From positions 1-13,579 of the IMG/VR virus record IMGVR_UViG_2695420792_000010: DNA of 13,579 nt. One strand, given 5' to 3'. Origin of the DNA: a virus. Its lineage: Duplodnaviria > Heunggongvirae > Uroviricota > Caudoviricetes. This document shows positions 1-8,906 of this stretch, piece by piece (within the stretch, counting starts at the first letter, position 1; every line of letters starts with the position of its first letter). The notes below the pieces were generated by a model. The model was not told where the DNA came from. It did not search any database and worked only from the letters and a program-made list of their open reading frames with translations. The translations under genes and the position numbers were made by a program.

Positions 1-708
1 CCGTTCGCCGGTTGCCCCGACAGGGCCGGTGTCACCGCGCTCTCCCTTATCACCCTTCGGCCCCTGAGGACCCGCGGGCCCCTGTTCCCCCTTTGGCCCG
101 GGAGGTCCCACCACGGTGGGGATTCTGTTTACGGCTTCTTCCGCCGCTATCCTGCTTTGTTCCGCTGACTGTGCGCTTTCTGCTGACTCCCGGGCTTTTT
201 CTGTTGCGGTCGTTGCATCCCTGGCTGCATTACCGGCTGCACTTTCTGCCGTCTTTCTTGACAATTCAGCTTCTGCTGCACTTTGTGATGACTCACTGGC
301 TTTTTGAGCGGCCGCAGAAGCCGAGGACGAGGACGCATCCTCTGACTGCTTTGCTGAGGCTGCACTTTCTGCCGCCTGCCGGGCTGACTCCGATGCCTCC
401 CCTGCTGAAGTGTCAGCATTTGCAGCGCTCTCTTCTGCCTGACTGGCTGATATGCCGGCATTCCTCGCTGACGTCTCCGCCTCTCCGGCATTCTTCTTCG
501 CCTCCTCAGCGTGACGCGCCACCTCTTCCACCATCAGTTCAAAACGGCGCAGTGCCTCCGGCCGGACGTCATCCTCCGACATGGCACCGAGAAAATCATT
601 CAGCGTACCGGGTTGAGAATCTTCATACACGGTGATGGTCCCGGCATGTGACGGCGGGAATCCCTCCACCAACAGAATAACGCTGTACTGACCGTACTCA
701 ACGTCCAT
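1..708 (-). CDS. Side tail fiber (Stf-like) protein, 5'-truncated fragment; the ORF runs off the window start
   Basis: Minus-strand frame is open from 783 to 1 with no stop (checked codon by codon). Translation MDVEYGQYSVILLVEGFPPSHAGTITVYEDSQPGTLNDFLGAMSEDDVRPEALRRFELMVEEVARHAEEAKK... matches the conserved N-terminal region of lambda-family Stf proteins as I recall them, but the first ~45 Stf residues are absent. Window-proximal part encodes Gly-X-Y collagen-like repeats (GPPGPKGEQGPAGPQGPKGDKGERGDTGPVGATGER). First in-frame ATG is at 708; an in-frame stop lies upstream at 784-786. Confidence 0.7.
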   Translation of the reverse strand, partial: MDVEYGQYSVILLVEGFPPSHAGTITVYEDSQPGTLNDFLGAMSEDDVRPEALRRFELMVEEVARHAEEAKKNAGEAETSARNAGISASQAEESAANADTSAGEASESARQAAESAASAKQSEDASSSSASAAAQKASESSQSAAEAELSRKTAESAAGNAARDATTATEKARESAESAQSAEQSRIAAEEAVNRIPTVVGPPGPKGEQGPAGPQGPKGDKGERGDTGPVGATGER

Positions 709-773
709 GCTGTAACGCCCGGCTTCATCCGGATTTACTGAGGGCAAAAATACAGAATCCGGTGTCAATAAGC

Positions 774-1676
774 TTACCTTCGGTTAGCGTATGTATTTTT
801 CCAGTAATACGTCGTGTCACCACAAATCCACGGCACATCTGCAGCACTGCCACCATGGCACTGCGCGTTAAACACGGAGAGGTCAGCACGAAACTGTGTC
901 AGCATGGCTGTAAACAGCGCAGGTTGCTGTGCGTGGGTGGCGGCGCTCATGTCAAACTCTCCCTGCATCCAGCACACCGCCAGCAACACATTTTTCGGGT
1001 TCTTCTGTAATGCAGCTTTAGTGCGCGCAATCAGGTCCTGATATAACGGTTTACCCACACCCCAGCGCGCCGAATCCTGGCTGGCCCCCGTGTCCGCACT
1101 GAATGTCCCCTCAGCGCCCTGGGTGAATGCAGAACCACCACGACAGCATGGTACCAGCAGGATCCCCGCGTTATTCGGGATATACGGAAGCAGTTTTTTG
1201 GCAATATGTAAGCCCTGGCCGACACAGCCGTACTGCCCTTTGCTCAGGTCTGCCTTCGGATGATTCAGCGTACTCATATCCTGCACATCATGCAGGCAGT
1301 GGTCGGCCGGAATAATATCGTTATATCTGCAGGCAGCCCCACCCGGCGTCACTGTACTGCGGCGCGCCAGCTGTTTAATGCGCGGATCCGGAGCATCGTA
1401 TGAATCCGGCAGCGGAAGCCCTTCACCGTAAGCCATGGCATTGGACTGCCCGGCCAGTACGATGACGTAGTACCAATCCGGCTCAGTTGCACCACTGACC
1501 ACCACATCACCTTCTGCTGTAATCGCCTGCATCAGAGTATAAGGGGTTATGGCCACCGGACTACCAAACGGCTGCCAGCCCTCTTTCAGTTTATGTGTCA
1601 GCTTTTCCGCAAGATCTGATGGCGACGCCGCCCTGACAACATCATAGTGTTTAAATTCCATGGTTCTTTCCACCAT
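774..1676 (-). CDS. Prophage NanS-p-like sialate O-acetylesterase (DUF1737-like N-terminus plus SASA/GDSL-like esterase domain), short relative to typical NanS-p
   Basis: 300-aa ORF. N-terminus MEFKHYDVVRAASPSDLAEKLTHKLKEGWQPFG resembles the DUF1737 domain of prophage NanS-p; VIVLAGQSNAMAYGEG carries the GQSN esterase motif. ATG at 1676 has no Shine-Dalgarno; the ATG at 1661 is preceded by GGTGGAAAG and may be the true start. Stop TAA at 774-776. The family's C-terminal domain appears to be missing (recollection of family architecture). Confidence 0.7.
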   Translation of the reverse strand: MVERTMEFKHYDVVRAASPSDLAEKLTHKLKEGWQPFGSPVAITPYTLMQAITAEGDVVVSGATEPDWYYVIVLAGQSNAMAYGEGLPLPDSYDAPDPRIKQLARRSTVTPGGAACRYNDIIPADHCLHDVQDMSTLNHPKADLSKGQYGCVGQGLHIAKKLLPYIPNNAGILLVPCCRGGSAFTQGAEGTFSADTGASQDSARWGVGKPLYQDLIARTKAALQKNPKNVLLAVCWMQGEFDMSAATHAQQPALFTAMLTQFRADLSVFNAQCHGGSAADVPWICGDTTYYWKNTYANRR

Positions 1677-1920
1677 CTGAAAAATAATTCTTTAAAATAC
1701 CTGACATGTAATACAGAAAAAACACAAAACCATACCTTAAATAAAAACCTGATTATCAAGCAGATATGCATGGATAAACTACAAGACGAGATATAAACCA
1801 CCCTGTATTTAAATAAACAATAAACAACATCAGAAAAATAATTCTGCTCTATGGTTTAATTCAAAAATATCATTTATACTTTTCAGAACATCACCAGCAA
1901 GGCATAAACAAGGAAAGTAA

Positions 1921-2256
1921 ATGAAGTGGATTGTGATTGATACAGTTATCCAGCCATCATGCGGAATATCTTTTTCAGTCATATGGAGTAAAATAAAATT
2001 AATAATCTGGTATCAATCGGATGCTTTCTTACCTCCTGAAAGTATATTTACACTGACTCACACAGGTATCATGCTCAATAACAAAGTGCTACCTGTAACC
2101 ATTTACAACATAGTACCATTCAATAAAACATTCTGGAATTTAATCAAAAACAGCCAGGAATGCCCTACAAATACAGATAACGTATTGAATGAATGCTTTA
2201 ATAACCGTTGCACTCTGCAAATATGTCCTTATGGGCTAAAACAACAAAATCCATAA
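1921..2256 (+). CDS. Hypothetical AT-rich ORF (111 aa), no recognisable family
   Basis: ATG preceded by AAGGAAAG Shine-Dalgarno-like sequence 4 nt upstream; AT-rich codon usage; Ile/Asn-rich product with 6 Cys. Could be chance translation of AT-rich DNA. Confidence 0.2.
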
Positions 2257-2280
2257 GGAGTTTACTCACATCTGACAAAA

Positions 2281-2311
2281 TCAATATAAACAGCCCCTCC
2301 GGAGAGGGGCT
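2281..2311. terminator. GC-rich hairpin (8-bp perfect stem AGCCCCTC / GAGGGGCT, loop CGGA); U-run follows on the minus strand
   Basis: Stem 2292-2299 pairs with 2304-2311. On the minus strand the hairpin is followed by TTTATATTGATTTT; on the plus strand there is no U-run. Lies 36 nt after the stop of the 1921..2256 ORF. Confidence 0.35.
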
Positions 2312-2703
2312 GGAGAGTGGCGCTATGTGCCATTGCATGGTGCCGAGTGCCTCCCGGTGAATTCAGTACCAGCACCTGAATCCGCGATTATCCCATATAC
2401 CTACTCGCTGATTGCCCCTCCGCACAGGGGGATTCACCATGCCAGTTTCTTTTAACAAACTCCCCGCAAACCAGACAACAGTCAACCGCCTGAATTGTGA
2501 AGTATTTAAAAATTTCTCCCGCTAACTGATACCCGGCTAACAGTCTGGCGTTTTCTTTTTCAGCAACGGGAAAGCAACAACCACCACACCCGCCACCAGC
2601 ACACCGTCAGCCAGCACTGACATTATCCGGCTGCTGCAATGCCATTCACAAAAACAGTAAGCAATCACTTTTTACCGTAACAGGTGATAATCCAGATATG
2701 TAT

Positions 2704-3030
2704 CTACCCCAGATGAGTAATCCGAAGTTCATCCATACCACAGGTCCTGGCTATTCTGTTGTACTCCTGAACAAGAGCAAATAATTCTGAATTAGCAACC
2801 ATGAACTCATCGCAAACCCTCTGTATAGCATCACTATTCAGAATAATAACGTCTCTTCCCGAAAGACGATCAGGAGTACAGAACAAAACTGTCAAACGGC
2901 TGAAGGCCTTTGCTCGTGCTGCATTGACTATATCAATACGCTGCCTAAGGATGAAACACCCCGACGCCTCATCAATATTCACTCTACCCACACCATATGA
3001 ATGATAAATATTTAATGCTGAAAAAACCAT
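2704..3030 (-). CDS. Hypothetical AT-rich ORF (about 108 aa from the first ATG; ORF track gives a TTG start at 3057)
   Basis: Open frame ending ...ELRITHLG with stop TAG at 2704; no Shine-Dalgarno identified; no family recognised. May be a gene fragment. Confidence 0.15.
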   Translation of the reverse strand: MVFSALNIYHSYGVGRVNIDEASGCFILRQRIDIVNAARAKAFSRLTVLFCTPDRLSGRDVIILNSDAIQRVCDEFMVANSELFALVQEYNRIARTCGMDELRITHLG

Positions 3031-3167
3031 TAGACCGTATAACAAATATTCAATCAATACTTAACAGAACTTTTATTTTTGACAAACATATAATATTTTC
3101 AACAATATCCTGAGCCAGGTATATTTCAGTATAAGGCTCTGCCGGAAGGAATCTGGAAGAATGAATA

Positions 3168-3244
3168 TGGCGCGCTGTACTGGATTCGAACCAGTGACCG
3201 ATTGCTTAGAAGGCAATTGCTCTGTCCGGCTGAGCTAACAACGC
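3168..3244 (-). tRNA. tRNA-Arg, anticodon UCU (reads AGA), phage-borne
   Basis: Reverse complement GCGTTGTTAGCTCAGCCGGACAGAGCAATTGCCTTCTAAGCAATCGGTCACTGGTTCGAATCCAGTACAGCGCGCCA. 7-bp acceptor stem (one G-U pair), anticodon stem ATTGC/GCAAT with loop CTTCTAA (anticodon TCT), T-arm GGTTCGAATCC, encoded CCA. Confidence 0.85.
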
Positions 3245-3345
3245 TGAATACCGATAATGGACCGCCATCGGGGACCCGCCCCCCGCACCAACAACCCTGT
3301 TATCGTGTCGTCTGCTCTTCCTGATAAGCTAATGGCGGTTTGTGA

Positions 3346-3421
3346 TGGTGGCCCTTGCTGGATTTGAACCAGCGACCTGGCGATTATGAGTCGCTCGCTC
3401 TCACCACTGAGCTAAAGGGCC
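3346..3421 (-). tRNA. tRNA with CAU anticodon (tRNA-Ile2 lysidine type or tRNA-Met), phage-borne
   Basis: Reverse complement GGCCCTTTAGCTCAGTGGTGAGAGCGAGCGACTCATAATCGCCAGGTCGCTGGTTCAAATCCAGCAAGGGCCACCA. Perfect 7-bp acceptor stem GGCCCTT/AAGGGCC, anticodon loop CTCATAA, T-arm GGTTCAAATCC, encoded CCA. Resembles E. coli ileX-type tRNA (recollection). Confidence 0.85.
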
Positions 3422-3454
3422 GGGAGCAGAATAATAACGATCCGTAATTAATTT

Positions 3455-3489
3455 CGCAATAAAAAACCCGCTCAGCGGCGGGTTGTAGA
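3455..3489 (-). terminator. Intrinsic terminator (tR'-like) downstream of the late promoter
   Basis: Stem CCCGC (3467-3471) / GCGGG (3478-3482), extendable by flanking pairs; followed on the minus strand by TTTTTT (complement of 3461-3466). Confidence 0.55.
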
Positions 3490-3564: not shown

Positions 3565-4386
3565 TTACCTAGTTACCTTTTTTAACTGCCGCTCAGCCCA
3601 TGCTTCTTCAATATCAAACCGGGTCACCAGCGCATCATAAAATTTCTTAACTGTTTTTTCCCATGACGCGCGTGTTATCTGGTTTGTCACCTCGCATATA
3701 GCATTAAATGCCTCCGTTGATGGTAGTCTTTCATAGCCACGACCACCACAACGCTGGCAGTCTCTGATAACAGGCATACCACGTTTTACCGACTCTTCAC
3801 GATGAATGGCGACACCACGCCCACGGCAATCCTTACAGCCGGTGGAAACCTCACCCTTTCCGCCACACTCCGGACAGGCAACTTTTACCACCTCCCTGAC
3901 TTTTTTCCATTCTTCCCAGTAAGACGGATACACACCTTTCGTACACTTTGCCCATACCGGCGGCTTACCATCCGGATACTGGACCTTGTTTGTAAAAACT
4001 ATGCTTTCAATAAATTTTTCCCCATAGCAACAAGGGCACTGCTTTTTACTCGCTGCGCTGCGGGCATAATCCTCAAAAGCGTACGAAGCCATAATGCGCA
4101 TCACTACCGGTTTTATTTCTGCCGGAAGTTTTCTCAACGCCGCCACACGATCGCACCGACTGAGTGCATAATCTGCCAGTAATTCTGTTGCCCGCGCCCT
4201 GTCATTCATACTGATGCCCATTTTCCCCAGGAACGCAGAAAAACCCATCTCAGCCCGATTCTGTGTCATGCCCTGCGCGGCCATCACATCAGTGATACTC
4301 AGCGCATCTTTTGACGTTGAGGCCGATGCATCGGTCAGGCCAGGGGATTTTGGGGAGTAGTATTTCGGTAAATCTTCCAGTTTCAT
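3565..4386 (-). CDS. Late-gene antitermination protein Q (phage 82/Qin QuuQ-type)
   Basis: 273-aa ORF with ATG start. N-terminus LPKYYSPKSPGLTDASASTSKDALSITDVMAAQGM resembles the QuuQ-type Q family as recalled. Multiple CxxC motifs (CPCC, CPECGGKG, CKDCRGRG, CQRCGGRG) consistent with Zn-binding. Position just upstream of the late promoter, terminator and tRNAs fits. Confidence 0.75.
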   Translation of the reverse strand: MKLEDLPKYYSPKSPGLTDASASTSKDALSITDVMAAQGMTQNRAEMGFSAFLGKMGISMNDRARATELLADYALSRCDRVAALRKLPAEIKPVVMRIMASYAFEDYARSAASKKQCPCCYGEKFIESIVFTNKVQYPDGKPPVWAKCTKGVYPSYWEEWKKVREVVKVACPECGGKGEVSTGCKDCRGRGVAIHREESVKRGMPVIRDCQRCGGRGYERLPSTEAFNAICEVTNQITRASWEKTVKKFYDALVTRFDIEEAWAERQLKKVTR

Positions 4387-4400
4387 TTTTTGACCTGCTC

Positions 4401-4757
4401 TTAATGCATTATGGGGTAAATCTTCACCCCCAGACGTCCACCAGATACTGGCTGACCACGAACGATATTGATTTCATCAAACTGCTCATCGTCCATTAAC
4501 ACTCCCGCATGCGTCAGCGCATCCAGCGGTGCTTTCAGAATATTGTCCAGGTCACGACGGCGCTTATCCGGTGGCTCTGCAGTGATTCTGATTGCCAGCC
4601 TTCCGGACAGGTTTAATTTCAGTCGCTGCTGGCGAACAATAAGCGCCACATCCCGGCGATAACGCTCACCGGCTTTTGATACAAAATATGTGCTGCCACG
4701 ACGTCGCCAGTAGGTGTTCACCGTCGGCGGATAAGGCAAAACAAACTCTATACGCAT
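4401..4757 (-). CDS. rusA: Holliday junction resolvase RusA
   Basis: 118 aa; PPTVNTYWRRRGSTYFVSKAGERYRRDV and DKRRRDLDNILKAPLDALTHAGVLMDDEQ match the RusA family pattern (recollection of E. coli RusA). AAGAGG Shine-Dalgarno 6 nt before the ATG. Confidence 0.85.
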   Translation of the reverse strand: MRIEFVLPYPPTVNTYWRRRGSTYFVSKAGERYRRDVALIVRQQRLKLNLSGRLAIRITAEPPDKRRRDLDNILKAPLDALTHAGVLMDDEQFDEINIVRGQPVSGGRLGVKIYPIMH

Positions 4758-4769
4758 CAGTAACCTCTT

Positions 4770-5819
4770 TTACCCGAGCACGCCGGTTGCAAAGGCGTGC
4801 TCAAGAAAACGAAAAATTAAATCAACCTGAGAACCATGCTTTTCTTCGAACGCCAGCGGATCCGCATGAAGCTCGTTGTGATGCTCCCGACACAGCGGTA
4901 GCGTGAAAATATCGTGAGATTTTGTCCCCATTCCGCCCTGACCATGACCAATCAGGTGATGGGGATCGTCGGCTGGCTTACCACAACACGCACACGGCTG
5001 TGTCTTCACCCAGCGTGTGTATTTCTCGTTAACCCAGCGGCGACGTTTAGGTCGTTTCATGAAAGATTCCGGAGACTCAGGATCAACGGCAATACTGACC
5101 ACCGTCTTTTCCTGTGGTGGGTTCTGTTGCTGGTGGACGTGAGGCAATAACGCAATATTTTTTGTGCGCTGCTTCAGTATGCTGGTGGCTGTCTGCTCTC
5201 CCGGTATGATGTCGCTTTCACTGTACACAGAGCGAATTTTTTCCGCACGCAACCCCAGAGAACGACGTAATACTGCCTCCGGAAGCGCGTCCGCCACCTG
5301 ATTGCAGACCGCCCACCAGGATAATTCAGCCAGCGATAATTCCCGCTCCTGTGTGCCATTCATTGCGTGACGAATGACGTCAATCATCCATGCTGACAAG
5401 TTTTGGTGAGCAAGTTGCTCAAGTGATTCGGAGGTCTGGTCACGCAGCTGGTTGTCGCAGTGCCAGCATAACACCATTGCGCCGGTACCATAACGGTGAA
5501 TGACGGTTTCACTGTGGTGATAATCGCCGTGTGGCCACTGGCAGGATTTAACATGGCGCAGTAACCAGTCAGACAATGCGCCAGCGCCACCAGCAGCACG
5601 AATCACTCGTTCGTCGCTGAAAAATGGCAGTAATGATTTATCCTCCGCCAGCGGCTGGCGAACGGCAGGAACGACCCCGGACGACAGATTACGCATGCTT
5701 TTCGGTTCCGGCTCCACCAGTACCCGGGTATTGTGGAATACCGGCATGGATTCACGGCCCGGCTTAACGATCACCAGCCCGAGTTCCGGTACCAGAACAG
5801 GTCGAAGTAATACCCGCAC
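4770..5819 (-). CDS. DUF968-family phage protein (YdfU-like) with C-terminal HNH/Zn-finger-like motif
   Basis: 349-aa ORF, GTG start at 5819 one nt after the upstream stop. C-terminal CACCGKPADDPHHLIGHG...LCREHHNELH resembles an HNH-like motif. Same length as Qin YdfU as I recall. Confidence 0.65.
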   Translation of the reverse strand: MRVLLRPVLVPELGLVIVKPGRESMPVFHNTRVLVEPEPKSMRNLSSGVVPAVRQPLAEDKSLLPFFSDERVIRAAGGAGALSDWLLRHVKSCQWPHGDYHHSETVIHRYGTGAMVLCWHCDNQLRDQTSESLEQLAHQNLSAWMIDVIRHAMNGTQERELSLAELSWWAVCNQVADALPEAVLRRSLGLRAEKIRSVYSESDIIPGEQTATSILKQRTKNIALLPHVHQQQNPPQEKTVVSIAVDPESPESFMKRPKRRRWVNEKYTRWVKTQPCACCGKPADDPHHLIGHGQGGMGTKSHDIFTLPLCREHHNELHADPLAFEEKHGSQVDLIFRFLEHAFATGVLG

Positions 5820-6557: not shown

Positions 6558-6713
6558 TTACTCCTCAGGTTCGTAAGCTGTGAAGACAGCGACCTCCGTC
6601 TGGCCGGTTCGGATTCGTACCTCGCAGAGGTCTTTCCTCGTTACCAGTGCCGTCACTATGACGGTTAAACAGATGACGATAAGGGCGATTAACATCGCCT
6701 TTTGCTGCTTCAT
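6558..6713 (-). CDS. hok: Hok/Gef-family type I toxin (HokD/RelF-like small membrane toxin)
   Basis: 51-aa product MKQQKAMLIALIVICLTVIVTALVTRKDLCEVRIRTGQTEVAVFTAYEPEE matches the Hok/Gef family and, as I recall, HokD (RelF) almost exactly. AAGGAGA Shine-Dalgarno 8 nt upstream. An in-frame upstream ATG at 6770 would add 19 codons (MSHKCRLASYVPKGKEKQA). Confidence 0.85.
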   Translation of the reverse strand: MKQQKAMLIALIVICLTVIVTALVTRKDLCEVRIRTGQTEVAVFTAYEPEE

Positions 6714-7270
6714 AGCCTGCTTCTCCTTGCCTTTCGGCACGTAAGAGGCTAACCTACATTTGTGAGACATAGATTGGGCCTCAGATTAATGTTAAGCGTC
6801 TTGCAGGACGCGTAATGTTAACTGGGGCTTTTCTCTATCTGCCTTTTGGTGTTCATGCCTGAGGCAGATAGCCTCAAGCACCCGCAGCAATTCTAACTAT
6901 CCAATAGATCAATGCCAACTTCTTTTCCTGCAACATCTCTCATCATAAGTGACCAAAATTCATCCAATCAGCACAAAAGAAACATTTAAAGCGTGAATGC
7001 TACCGAACGTTCATTTCAATTACATCGTTTTGATTTTTAACAGTTTTTACCTCAACAAATCAAATGGCATTAGCATTCATCATGGAAGAAAGACTGATAA
7101 AAATGATCATTTTCAATGACTTATGATCACACCGGGTATTGCCAAGTCATTCCTTTTACGCCAGGATACCCACAAGTGAGTAGTCGAGGAGAGTTTGCCA
7201 ATTTTTGCGATATAAATTTCAATGTCCGAAGAACCATTAATTGTTAATTGATTCTGTATAAGGTATTAAC

Positions 7271-8368
7271 ATGACAATTTCATATATTCCTATTCTGAAA
7301 GCGAAACGTTCTGAGTTATCAGCTTTATCGCAGCTATTCATTGAAAAGAAATCAAAAATTTTGCCATTACTCGAAATTGAACCAGTGCCAATTGACCCTG
7401 ATTCAGGTATTGCCTTAAAGAGTTATAACGAGACTCTTATAGAGTTCGGAAAGAAAGTCTCAAAATCTTGCTCAGATATGCAAGGTGTTTATATTGATGG
7501 ATTATTAATTGAAGAGCATTTTATTTCTCCTGAAGATCATTACCCTATAATAAATGCGGTTAATCAAGTTAGAGATATGGGGATAAGAGTTATTCCTGTC
7601 AGTTCACCAACTCGCCCATCTAACTATAAAAGAGCGATTGATGAATTAATGCAGAATGAAATATGCTTGAGATTAACCACGTTAGATCTGGTTAACCCAC
7701 AATTAATAACGCATTACATTAATCATCTGGGAATTCCTTTATCAAATATTGATATAATTATTGACTTAAGAGATGAGTTAACCGAGGATAAACTTAATTC
7801 CGGCGAACTATATACTTTGGCAATGGGATTGATAAACAATCTGGCGCACCTCAATGAATACAGAAAAGTGATTCTTTCTGGGGGTTCATTTCCTACAGAT
7901 CTCAGTGATATTTCTGTTGGTCTATATTCTCAACCTCGAATCGAGTGGATTTTATGGCAGAGTTTAATGAATAGAAAAGAACTTGCCAGAAATGTGATTT
8001 ATAGTGATTATGGAGTACAGCACCCCGACTTTAATAGGCTTTCGACGCGATTCCCTAGCGTATCTGCCAGCGTCAGATACTCTGGAGATAATGACTTTTG
8101 GGTATTTCGAGGAAGAGTAGCTAATCGCTTTGGTTATGAACAATATGGTAAACATAGTGAGGATATTCTTGCTCATCGAGAATATTCAGGGCCTACATTC
8201 TGTGCGGGAGATAGAGACATAGAATATTATGCAAACGAGTATCAAGCCTACAAAGCCAATCCCTCTGGTAACTATAAATTTGGTAGCCCAGAGGTATGGC
8301 GTAGGATTGGGCAAAACCATCACATAACTAAGGTTGTTGAGCAACTCGCCACTCTTTACGGGCTTTAA
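7271..8368 (+). CDS. Uncharacterised 365-aa protein, first gene of the AT-rich convergent cassette (possibly the database family annotated as 'beta protein / sce7725')
   Basis: Clean ATG at 7271 with AAGG 9 nt upstream; stop TAA 8366-8368; uninterrupted 365 codons; strongly AT-rich, unlike the flanking phage genes. The N-terminal pattern MTISYIPILKAKRSELSAL reminds me of the 'beta protein' family, but this is unverified. Confidence 0.7.
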   Translation: MTISYIPILKAKRSELSALSQLFIEKKSKILPLLEIEPVPIDPDSGIALKSYNETLIEFGKKVSKSCSDMQGVYIDGLLIEEHFISPEDHYPIINAVNQVRDMGIRVIPVSSPTRPSNYKRAIDELMQNEICLRLTTLDLVNPQLITHYINHLGIPLSNIDIIIDLRDELTEDKLNSGELYTLAMGLINNLAHLNEYRKVILSGGSFPTDLSDISVGLYSQPRIEWILWQSLMNRKELARNVIYSDYGVQHPDFNRLSTRFPSVSASVRYSGDNDFWVFRGRVANRFGYEQYGKHSEDILAHREYSGPTFCAGDRDIEYYANEYQAYKANPSGNYKFGSPEVWRRIGQNHHITKVVEQLATLYGL

Positions 8369-8906
8369 GTTTAACTCGAACAGCTTCACGAAGCTCGCCA
8401 ACATCCATACTATTGGCGAGTTTTGACCATAAGACGCGTTTAGGTTTATTTTTCAAATTCTGTAGCTCCCCTACATCACTTAATAGGGAAAGCAATTCAT
8501 CTTTCCAAAGAAGCATTGTTAAGGAAAGTTTGTCCACTTGTGGATTCAACTTGCTAGTTCGAATTGTTTTTAAATGGATACCTTGCCGTGCACCTTGCGT
8601 AACTTGCTTTATCCCCCACCATGATGGAACTATGCTTAAAGCATCATAAAGATGGCAATCAGAGACAACCAAAGTTACTTTATCCATCACTGATGAGTAA
8701 TGTTGCACCTGCGCTGGTAATCTGAGCAAGTTATCACTCTTGCTCTTCAACTCATAACCATGTATAAGCCCATTGATCACTGCTATATCAGCTCTGCTAG
8801 CCCCTAGATTCATCGTAAACTCATCAATGATTAGGGTGTCAGGATCTTTATGATGATCTCTCAGAATCTTGGCATGCACAGCCTTTCTTACATCAATGTC
8901 TCTCAT
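8328..8906 (-). CDS. Uncharacterised 192-aa protein with N-terminal PD-(D/E)xK nuclease-like motif (possibly 'sce7726 family'), second gene of the AT-rich cassette
   Basis: ATG at 8906, stop TAG at 8328-8330. Motif LIIDEF...RADIAVINGLIHGYELKS fits the restriction-endonuclease fold pattern (D40 ... E52-x-K54, preceded by D28/E29). AT-rich. Weak Shine-Dalgarno. Confidence 0.7.
   Translation of the reverse strand: MRDIDVRKAVHAKILRDHHKDPDTLIIDEFTMNLGASRADIAVINGLIHGYELKSKSDNLLRLPAQVQHYSSVMDKVTLVVSDCHLYDALSIVPSWWGIKQVTQGARQGIHLKTIRTSKLNPQVDKLSLTMLLWKDELLSLLSDVGELQNLKNKPKRVLWSKLANSMDVGELREAVRVKLKARKEWRVAQQP

Follow-up and report, generated by a model that had tools for sequence, protein, structure and literature searches.

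Gene content of the interval between the tRNA genes and the esterase gene

The window analysed here, 13,579 nucleotides of the IMG/VR virus record IMGVR_UViG_2695420792_000010, is a defective lambdoid prophage of E. coli that is read on the minus strand. Its interval 1677-3167 is bounded by a tRNA-Arg(UCU) gene (3244..3168, minus) and a DUF1737/SASA esterase gene (1676..774, minus), lies downstream of the antiterminator gene Q (4386..3565, minus) on the strand of the late operon, and contains iraL, an STnc100-family small RNA (sRNA) gene and two small conserved phage genes, all of them previously described and ordinary content. The features of the interval and its flanks are as follows.

774..1676, minus strand: nanS-p type esterase gene, 5' half (Pfam DUF1737, 58.9 bits; SASA, 51.6 bits)
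1852..1888, plus strand: iraL promoter, -10 TATACT at 1875-1880, transcription start at 1888 (matched to CFT073 5'-RACE)
1921..2256, plus strand: iraL, opposed to the late operon (NCBIfam NF007393; identity to CFT073 iraL)
2282..2471, minus strand: STnc100-family sRNA gene (Rfam RF02076)
2291..2312, minus strand: Rho-independent terminator of STnc100, CAGCCCCTCTCCGGAGGGGCTG then TTTATATT (terminator scan and Rfam structure line)
2449..2478, minus strand: putative sRNA promoter, TTGTCT (2478..2473), 18 nt, TGT-TAAAAG (2457..2449)
2537..2668, minus strand: DUF3927 gene, 43 aa (Pfam PF13064; PHROG label 'TciB-like')
2704..3030, minus strand: orf92/108, core 2982..2704 (92 aa, GTG), alternative ATG at 3030 (108 aa) (phrog_2873)
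3168..3244, minus strand: tRNA-Arg (UCU), upstream boundary of the cargo slot (ARAGORN; Rfam, 68 bits)
3346..3421, minus strand: tRNA with CAU anticodon (ARAGORN; Rfam tRNA, 72.5 bits; PGAP tRNA-Ile in JB2, ileZ type)
3431..3484, minus strand: terminator-like hairpin (3484..3465) and promoter-like site (3459..3431) upstream of the tRNAs (consensus scan)
3565..4386, minus strand: Q antiterminator gene (Pfam Antiterm PF03589, 181.9 bits; the identical locus of JB2 carries the annotation antitermination protein)

The initial annotation had placed the interval correctly between the tRNAs and the esterase gene, and both ORFs that it named, 1921..2256 (plus) and 2704..3057 (minus), are present in the program-made ORF list. 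However, its description of a gene-poor stretch with no recognisable gene did not hold, as three conserved protein genes and an Rfam sRNA together account for 937 of the 1491 bases (63%), and one of these genes, DUF3927 (2668..2537, minus), had been overlooked when only two ORFs were counted. The interval was also called AT-rich, which is true overall (GC 0.389, compared to 0.469 for the whole window) but not throughout: low GC occurs only in the iraL cassette (0.28-0.34) and in the sequence upstream of orf92 (0.30), whereas STnc100 (0.55) and DUF3927 (0.51) are not AT-rich. Two further plus-strand ORFs (2327..2455 and 2801..3004) had no match in Pfam, NCBIfam or PHROG and lie antisense to STnc100 and orf92, respectively, and were therefore taken as artefacts; the "pseudogene" called by PGAP at 2327-2452, antisense inside the STnc100 gene, is the first of these artefacts again.

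The plus-strand ORF is iraL

The product of the plus-strand ORF matched NF007393 (anti-adapter protein IraM subfamily) with 161.8 bits (cutoff 121) over residues 1-110 of 111, and 109 of its 111 amino acids were identical to CFT073 IraL, the coding sequence being intact and both substitutions conservative. At the nucleotide level, 332 of 336 positions agreed with CFT073 iraL (98.8%), compared to 233 of 337 aligned positions (69%) for K-12 iraM. The gene thus lies above the 95% nucleotide identity that Hryckowian et al. 2014 (PMC4045071) set as the minimum across the full coding region for iraL, and it is not iraM-like, as that assignment also demands. Judged by these matches, the product is an RssB anti-adaptor of the IraM/IraL/RssC family. 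The CFT073 gene was characterised in 2014 for RssB interaction, RpoS stabilisation and its transcription start (PMC4045071), and the 98% identity to the CFT073 protein suggests that the IraL of the window binds RssB and stabilises RpoS as well. In CFT073, loss of iraL shortened the RpoS half-life in log phase from about 5 min to 2.5 min.

The K-12 relative IraM (b1160, adjoining e14) belongs to the same family (NF007393) and length class and shares the conserved cysteines and the C-terminal ICPYG motif, with 63% amino acid and about 69-72% nucleotide identity, but its inducing conditions are different and it makes contact with both domains of RssB (PMC4045071). Because the similarity is confined to the coding region, no regulation can be transferred from K-12 iraM, and a PhoP-type control of iraL, like that of K-12 iraM, was rejected on this ground.

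The CFT073 5'-RACE end, ACATCACCAGCAAGGCATAAACAAGGAAA (PMC4045071), matches the window from 1888 on. Upstream of the gene (-100..+33), 129 of 134 positions were identical to CFT073 (96.3%), the same study having used an upstream identity of at least 96% as its measure of promoter conservation. The two sequences differ by a 1-nt deletion in the window at 1858/1859, in the -35/spacer region, and by 2 nt adjoining the start codon, so that iraL might be expressed differently or poorly here. An alternative explanation is that this copy is a silent allele that is carried passively, owing to the promoter deletion and possibly to H-NS silencing of the upstream region with its 28% GC; a second iraL copy in JJ1886 likewise has a point mutation in the -35 element, whose effect is unknown there (PMC4045071). 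We consider a silent allele possible but doubtful, since the coding sequence is intact with only the two conservative substitutions, the -10 and start-site sequences are unchanged from CFT073, and the same allele occurs with 99.9-100% identity in several unrelated complete genomes. In the reading that we prefer, iraL is an AT-rich moron cassette, inserted convergent to the late operon and equipped with its own sigma-70 promoter.

Two hairpins belong to one STnc100-family sRNA

Downstream of iraL, 35 nt after its stop codon, the opposite strand has a hairpin. It had been noted as a strong hairpin at 2292-2311, together with a second one near 2412-2428; we recovered the first at 2291-2312, with a 9-bp stem in which 7 pairs are G-C and with a run of T on the minus strand, and the second formed at 2409-2428 in the predicted fold. 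They are not separate features, both being helices of a single sRNA. The locus matched RF02076 with 129 bits (gathering score 47, E 1.2e-28) over model positions 1-206 of 206, not truncated, and its MFE fold had the consensus architecture of a long-range closing helix, three internal hairpins and a terminator. Compensatory double changes were found at 9 of 34 consensus pairs across six copies, while the z-score of the fold was modest (-1.85).

STnc100 copies are expressed and Northern-validated in EDL933 (PMC5331693), the element lies 75 nt downstream of stx2 (PMC12370729), it overlaps the Hfq-bound EcOnc27/sRNA103 (PMC12711010), and it is related to PasD (Zhu et al. 2026 preprint, bioRxiv 10.64898/2026.05.13.724894). 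For family members elsewhere, transcription in lysogens, Hfq binding and bands on Northern blots have been shown (PMC5331693, PMC12711010). STnc100 belongs to the backbone; in Stx2 phages it comes after stxB and goes by the names EcOnc27 or sRNA103, and by analogy it may act as an Hfq-dependent base-pairing regulator.

The 5' end of PasD2 was mapped by RNA-seq and Northern blot (Table S6 of PMC8550237) and aligns to the G of GCATGGTG, window position 2442; by homology to PasD2 alone, transcription of STnc100 would start near this position. The transcript would use its own extended -10 promoter and end at the terminator at 2312..2291. Each of the two candidate hexamers in the window has 4 of 6 consensus matches, and the promoter block is conserved in 933W, PPwrbA_EH2201 and mEp460. 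A generic sigma-70 scan, which did no better than shuffled sequence (7 sites compared to 5.1 expected), reported neither this promoter nor the mapped iraL promoter.

The element might instead be a structured 3' UTR or terminator of the late-strand cargo, in which case any small RNA would simply arise by processing or termination of transcripts that read through from promoters upstream. Consistent with this, a late-strand gene comes immediately before the element (stxB in 933W; DUF3927 here and for PasD2 of E2348/69), and the generic scan passed over the 4/6 hexamers. However, in PPwrbA_EH2201 no protein gene separates the element from the tRNAs that precede it, and in EDL933 the copies are abundant even without induction, when the late operons are silent (PMC5331693). 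PasD1 and PasD2 have discrete 5' ends and Hfq-dependent bands (PMC8550237), the TGT-TAAAA block preceding the mapped 5' end does not vary among copies, and RpoD binding has been reported at Salmonella copies (PMC10794520). A 3' UTR origin is rather improbable on this evidence, and an sRNA with its own promoter is the reading that we keep.

The PasD2 locus of prophage PP2 in E2348/69 (EPEC; Pearl Mizrahi et al. 2021, PMC8550237) consists, in this order, of Q, a cargo gene, DUF3927, the sRNA and a SASA esterase gene, and PP2 has no iraL. The promoter and 5' module are common to both sRNAs up to GCATGGTGAATCC, whereas the 3' two-thirds, including the PasD seed, differ, and PasD2 scores below the STnc100 gathering score. 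We rejected an identification of the sRNA as PasD itself: the seed/probe region CCTTGTGAGTTCTGGCTGCGCATG is absent from the window at up to 3 mismatches, the 3' part differs, and only the 5' module aligns. AsxR (Rfam RF02703) gave no hit in the window at the gathering threshold.

Two small late-strand genes, orf92 and DUF3927

The minus-strand ORF had been dismissed as weak, with a TTG start. By profile and homologue comparisons, orf92 is a real conserved hypothetical gene of the late region. It matched phrog_2873 (phage protein of unknown function) with an E value of 3.8e-70 over residues 10-117 and profile positions 1-108 of 108, and it has homologues with 54-60% identity and further ones with 33-44% identity in proteins of 91-95 aa. 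The TTG at 3057 is probably not the real start, as the PHROG profile begins at residue 10 (ATG at 3030). The start is ambiguous between this ATG and the GTG at 2982, where the distant homologues begin, neither having a good Shine-Dalgarno sequence. In distant prophages, the homologue orf95 is followed by genes for a TerB-like protein, DUF3927, holin and endolysin.

Compared to the B-type allele in locus L007, the 92 codons aligned without indels at 67% nucleotide identity, with dN 0.31, dS 1.13 and dN/dS 0.27; the differences fell 25/23/44 on the three codon positions, and every other frame contained stops. The AlphaFold2 model (pLDDT 88.9) consists of a helix, a beta-hairpin and a helix, that is, a predicted coiled-coil helical hairpin. 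Foldseek against the PDB returned prefoldin beta subunits at the top (E 0.03-0.1, best 0.033, rmsd 7-8 Angstrom), otherwise generic helical hairpins, and no match at E 0.001 or better, and a PDB sequence profile search reached 0.069 at best. Nothing significant was found in Pfam for the protein and eight homologues, or in NCBIfam and PADLOC for orf92.

The DUF3927 product is a small single-pass membrane peptide with a hydrophobic segment followed by KKK. It matched PF13064 with 95.6 bits (cutoff 25; profile 7-53 of 53) and phrog_1470 with E 7.8e-13, and PGAP annotates WP_000562553.1 at the same place in JB2 and CFT073. A homologue lies directly upstream of PasD2 in E2348/69 PP2. DUF3927 is physically coupled to the STnc100/PasD sRNAs. 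The N-terminus of the window copy is shorter than the Pfam model and the E2348/69 copy. The copy in L007 looks degraded, and that of E2348/69 is too short for a meaningful dN/dS.

The interval could also be read as mostly non-coding spacer or the remains of decayed cargo, with the two ORFs as chance reading frames. PGAP leaves the ORF at 2704..3057 unannotated in both JB2 and CFT073 and calls the pseudogene fragment at 2327-2452, and parts of the interval are very AT-rich. However, iraL is a characterised gene, orf92 has retained its reading frame although its nucleotides have diverged by 33%, and its homologues reach as low as 33% identity, the PGAP "pseudogene" is antisense to STnc100, and nearly two-thirds of the bases lie in conserved elements. 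Spacer or decay is already refuted for iraL and STnc100, and for the interval as a whole we regard it as extremely unlikely. Non-coding spacer and unconserved ORFs had been named beforehand as the outcomes that would speak against cargo; what was found are conserved ORFs, with orf92 under purifying selection.

Position in the stx slot of lambdoid prophages

Alignment to the stx2 locus of phage 933W showed that the interval occupies the stx slot, as the initial annotation had proposed from its position: orf92 and DUF3927 replace stxAB exactly, between tRNA-Arg and STnc100. Homology to 933W runs through the tRNA block (window 3160-3461, 86% identical), ends at 3160, is lost over 2501-3159 and returns in the sRNA that follows stxB. 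The order in Stx2 phages is Q, tRNAs, stxAB, STnc100 (EcOnc27/sRNA103), AsxR and nanS-p; the common backbone comprises the tRNA block, the STnc100 core and the esterase start (83% identical), and STnc100 marks the downstream edge of the cargo slot in both. Between these blocks, stxAB (881-2248 of the 933W locus, L004) is swapped for orf92 and DUF3927 (window 2501-3159), and the AsxR-containing spacer for the iraL cassette (window 1663-2333). In 933W, STnc100 (207.7 bits) lies 75 nt after stxB, and AsxR scores 88.1 bits. Module boundaries were also compared with those of the stx-less phage PPwrbA_EH2201. Window 3160-3461 aligns to positions 880-581 of L004, where the pT promoter is annotated at 583-611, and the hairpin and promoter-like site at 3431..3484 are equivalent to the terminator and pT annotated there.

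We confirmed that no Shiga toxin A- or B-like sequence is present: tblastn of 933W Stx2A and Stx2B against the window gave only short, scattered matches (best E 1.1 for StxA and 0.41 for StxB), and blastn to the 933W stx region gave no match inside the interval. Exchangeable cargo or a non-coding RNA had been anticipated, and both are present (iraL and the small genes; STnc100). The suggestion that such cargo would be degraded or novel was not borne out, given a known iraL, an Rfam STnc100 and small genes in PF13064 and PHROG 2873.

Overall, we read the interval, with roughly 90% confidence, as a mosaic accessory ("moron") region in a defective lambdoid prophage, consisting of late-strand cargo in the stx slot, the STnc100 sRNA and the iraL cassette. 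We infer that orf92 and DUF3927 would belong to the late-operon transcript made under Q antitermination, with a possible low-level contribution from the tRNA promoter. Such a pair could act on the timing of lysis, on the integrity of the envelope or on superinfection. Transcripts of iraL that read through the shared hairpin, which is weak on its plus-strand side, could moreover yield an RNA antisense to STnc100 and so link RpoS control to the sRNA. That both apply, namely a late-expressed functional pair in the exact stxAB slot and iraL read-through antisense to STnc100, is a tentative combination that we would not expect to hold in full.

The esterase gene is, by comparison with its homologues (616-645 aa), truncated by a deletion: the similarity stops at 782, and window 1-746 consists of sequence from a tail-fibre gene. 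The prophage no longer has its genes for lysis and morphogenesis, and iraL and the sRNA, which persist in spite of this and would act in the lysogen, are thus the elements most likely still to matter to the host. The locus corrects the plausible view that stx-negative lambdoid prophages have an empty stx slot, and its content fits the view that the Q-to-S region is a hotspot of cargo that modulates the host. In this widespread type of prophage, the slot and its surroundings contain an anti-adaptor predicted to stabilise RpoS and a putative Hfq-binding sRNA, both of which would act in the lysogen.

The same arrangement is found in the CFT073 potB prophage ("potB genomic island"; PMC4045071), to which window 1600-3260 is colinear and 98% identical, in the order Q, tRNAs, orf92, DUF3927, STnc100, iraL (convergent) and the start of the DUF1737 esterase; PGAP annotates the tRNAs, DUF3927, an IraM-family protein and DUF1737 there. 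After Q, CFT073 carries three tRNAs and an IS200, compared to two tRNAs in the window, and the break in the esterase gene does not fall at the same point in the two. Of 5426 complete E. coli genomes, 863 contain at least 80% of the interval.

Organization of the interval

Each element between the tRNAs and the esterase gene belongs to a described family, and their arrangement is that of the published iraL locus of strain CFT073; the locus is already known, and the small novel remainder is the role of a conserved gene pair, orf92 and DUF3927. The late region of the lambdoid prophage lies on the window's minus strand, and the interval sits where the initial annotation had placed it, with tRNAs on one side and the esterase gene on the other:

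4386..3565, minus strand: Q antiterminator gene
3421..3346, minus strand: tRNA with CAU anticodon (tRNA-Ile per PGAP)
3244..3168, minus strand: tRNA-Arg UCU
3167..1677, minus strand (reading direction): interval studied, between tRNA-Arg and the esterase gene
2668..2537, minus strand: gene for a 43-aa DUF3927 peptide (Pfam DUF3927, 95.6 bits), unlisted in the initial annotation
1676..774, minus strand: gene with DUF1737 and SASA esterase domains

The interval had been described as AT-rich and apparently gene-poor. It is AT-rich overall (GC 0.389 vs 0.469 for the window), but unevenly so: GC is 0.34 in the iraL gene, 0.28 in the region upstream of it and 0.30 in the stretch upstream of orf92, and reaches 0.55 in the small RNA (sRNA) gene STnc100 and 0.51 in DUF3927. 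It is not gene-poor, as 937 of its 1491 bases fall in four conserved elements. Both ORFs noted initially are present as mechanical ORFs. PGAP also calls an "incomplete hypothetical protein" pseudogene at the position of window 2327-2452 (plus strand) in CFT073 and in strain JB2. This call is probably an annotation artefact, because it lies wholly antisense inside the STnc100 gene and a protein family search gave no match.

Of 5426 complete E. coli genomes, 863 carry at least 80% of the interval, and the copy in JB2 is 100% identical. The iraL part also occurs in induced phages such as vB_EcoS-640R1, while mEp460 carries the part from orf92 to the sRNA.

The plus-strand ORF is iraL

The product of 1921..2256 (plus strand) matched NCBIfam NF007393, "anti-adapter protein IraM" (161.8 bits vs a cutoff of 121), and is 63% identical to K-12 IraM; the likeness of K-12 iraM to the window is confined to the coding region. 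The potB prophage of CFT073 aligned colinearly with window 1600-3260 at 98% identity, and its elements follow in matching order: Q, tRNAs, DUF3927, an IraM-family gene in the reverse orientation and DUF1737. Its counterpart of 1921..2256 is identical at 109 of 111 protein positions and 332 of 336 gene positions, and is iraL (Hryckowian et al. 2014, PMC4045071), located in what was termed the "potB genomic island" (PMC4045071). There, iraL raised the log-phase level and half-life of RpoS in CFT073 and Shigella sonnei, and likewise after transfer into K-12 (PMC4045071). Given the near-identity, the window's IraL would be expected to act as shown elsewhere, sequestering RssB and so stabilising RpoS in growing cells.

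The 5'-RACE end reported for CFT073 (ACATCACCAGCAAGG...; PMC4045071) maps to window 1888, with TATACT upstream of it at 1875-1880. The region from -100 to +33 is identical to CFT073 at 129 of 134 positions; differences include a 1-nt deletion in the -35/spacer of the promoter (window 1857-1860, TTTA-ATTC vs TTTACATTC in CFT073) and GT for CC at 1916-1917, two bases before the ATG. On iraL's own strand no T-run follows the hairpin shared with STnc100, and iraL transcripts may therefore extend antisense into the STnc100 gene.

The hairpins belong to an STnc100 sRNA

The strong hairpin (2291-2312; 9-bp stem with 7 G-C pairs, then a T-run on the minus strand) was confirmed, and the second, near 2409-2428, formed in the minimum-energy fold. 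They had been listed as separate features, but both are helices of a full-length STnc100 sRNA (Rfam RF02076; 2471..2282, minus strand; 129 bits vs a gathering score of 47), the strong one being its terminator. The single-sequence fold recovered the consensus architecture, and 9 of its 34 pairs persist among six diverged copies by changes in both partners.

EDL933 has 11 copies; RNA-seq reads numbered in the hundreds to thousands for all but one of them, and a Northern blot confirmed one (PMC5331693). The copy that follows stx2 overlaps EcOnc27/sRNA103, which is bound by Hfq and, when overexpressed, increased fimZ and espA transcripts (PMC12711010); this copy was also detected in outer membrane vesicles (PMC12370729). 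By analogy with its family, the window copy would be a transcribed, Hfq-associated sRNA.

The PasD sRNAs of EPEC are relatives of STnc100 (bioRxiv 10.64898/2026.05.13.724894). The window copy was ruled out as a PasD itself, the PasD probe sequence being absent from the window, and its alignment to PasD2 of EPEC strain E2348/69 covers the 5' module only. The mapped PasD2 5' end (Table S6, PMC8550237) aligns to window 2442. This position is preceded by TGT-TAAAAG and, at a further 18 nt, by TTGTCT; the block is conserved in every copy examined and is likely the sRNA promoter, with 2442 as the start site, so that the sRNA would be driven from a promoter of its own.

In phage mEp460_ev081, the STnc100 copy (3948-4138) departs from the window just after the closing helix (CACCATGCA) and is without the G+C-rich terminator, which suggests a recombination breakpoint within that sRNA gene.

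Comparison with the stx position of 933W

The initial statement that Shiga toxin is absent was borne out, tblastn of Stx2A and Stx2B from the Stx2 phage 933W against the window giving noise (best E 0.41). Pairwise BLAST found homology to 933W at window 3160-3461 (tRNA block, 86%), 2334-2500 (sRNA core) and 1554-1662 (start of the esterase gene). It breaks at 2501-3159, where 933W has stxAB in place of orf92 and DUF3927, and at 1663-2333, where it has the AsxR spacer in place of iraL and the variable terminator; two exchange sites thus flank the sRNA, one per side. The STnc100 copy of 933W (207.7 bits) begins 75 nt beyond the stop codon of stxB, with AsxR next on the opposite strand; PPwrbA_EH2201, a phage without stx, has its copy immediately after the tRNAs.

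The orf92 and DUF3927 genes

The minus-strand ORF had been called weak; it matched phrog_2873 at E 3.8e-70, starting at its tenth residue. Its homologues are of two kinds, one near-identical and the other at 54-60% identity, and an exhaustive search added others of 91-95 aa at 33-44% identity. These distant homologues begin at the position of GTG 2982, and orf92 is therefore placed at 2982..2704; ATG 3030 is possibly an alternative start. Compared with a diverged allele in a contig of GCA_045757245.1 (L007), its 92 codons show no indels, 67% nucleotide identity, dN 0.31 and dS 1.13 (ratio 0.27), with 44 differences at third codon positions vs 25 and 23 at the others; both alleles have stops in all five other frames. 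As judged from these sequence patterns, orf92 is a real gene. Pfam, NCBIfam, PADLOC and PDB sequence searches gave no match. The AlphaFold2 model was confident (pLDDT 88.9; helix, beta-hairpin, helix), and prefoldin beta subunits topped a Foldseek search of the PDB at a non-significant E of 0.03 (rmsd ~8 Angstrom).

Two other settings show conserved synteny. The diverged L007 allele, too, lies immediately ahead of an STnc100 copy and the esterase gene, and a prophage of another type carries a 39-44% identical homologue in the order orf95, TerB-like, DUF3927, holin, endolysin. L007 has two STnc100 copies (1344-1556 and 4650-4839) in one Q-to-esterase region, separated by a TolA-like gene, an AraC-type regulator and an IS3-family element. 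The IS3-family insertion lies directly ahead of the orf92 homologue and accounts for the aberrant N-terminus of that homologue.

The DUF3927 ORF also matches phrog_1470 ("TciB-like") and is annotated by PGAP in JB2 and CFT073; its peptide has one hydrophobic segment followed by KKK. In prophage PP2 of E2348/69 a DUF3927 gene ends 41 nt before PasD2, and thus peptide gene and sRNA recur together. Transcription of both orf92 and DUF3927 would come from the late promoter under Q control, with perhaps a weak contribution from a putative tRNA promoter (3459..3431), the counterpart of 933W pT.

Other loci in the window

Window 782-1700 is the 5' half of an esterase gene of nanS-p type that stops after 300 aa here vs 616-645 aa elsewhere, and window 1-746 comes from within a prophage tail-fibre gene (99.2% identity to O145 strains). 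Among complete E. coli genomes none joins the two; the genes for lysis and morphogenesis are therefore missing, and the prophage is deleted. In its early region, a 365-aa ORF (7271-8368, plus strand; Pfam Beta_protein, 175.7 bits; PADLOC PD-Lambda-2_C, E 6.5e-41) and an overlapping 192-aa ORF (8328-8906, minus strand; PADLOC model cll, E 2.4e-28) may form an anti-phage defence component. A sok antisense RNA (Rfam RF01794, 121.7 bits) lies at 6708-6883 (minus strand); the corresponding match in JB2 is overlapped by a PGAP hokD toxin gene, which identifies a type I toxin-antitoxin locus.
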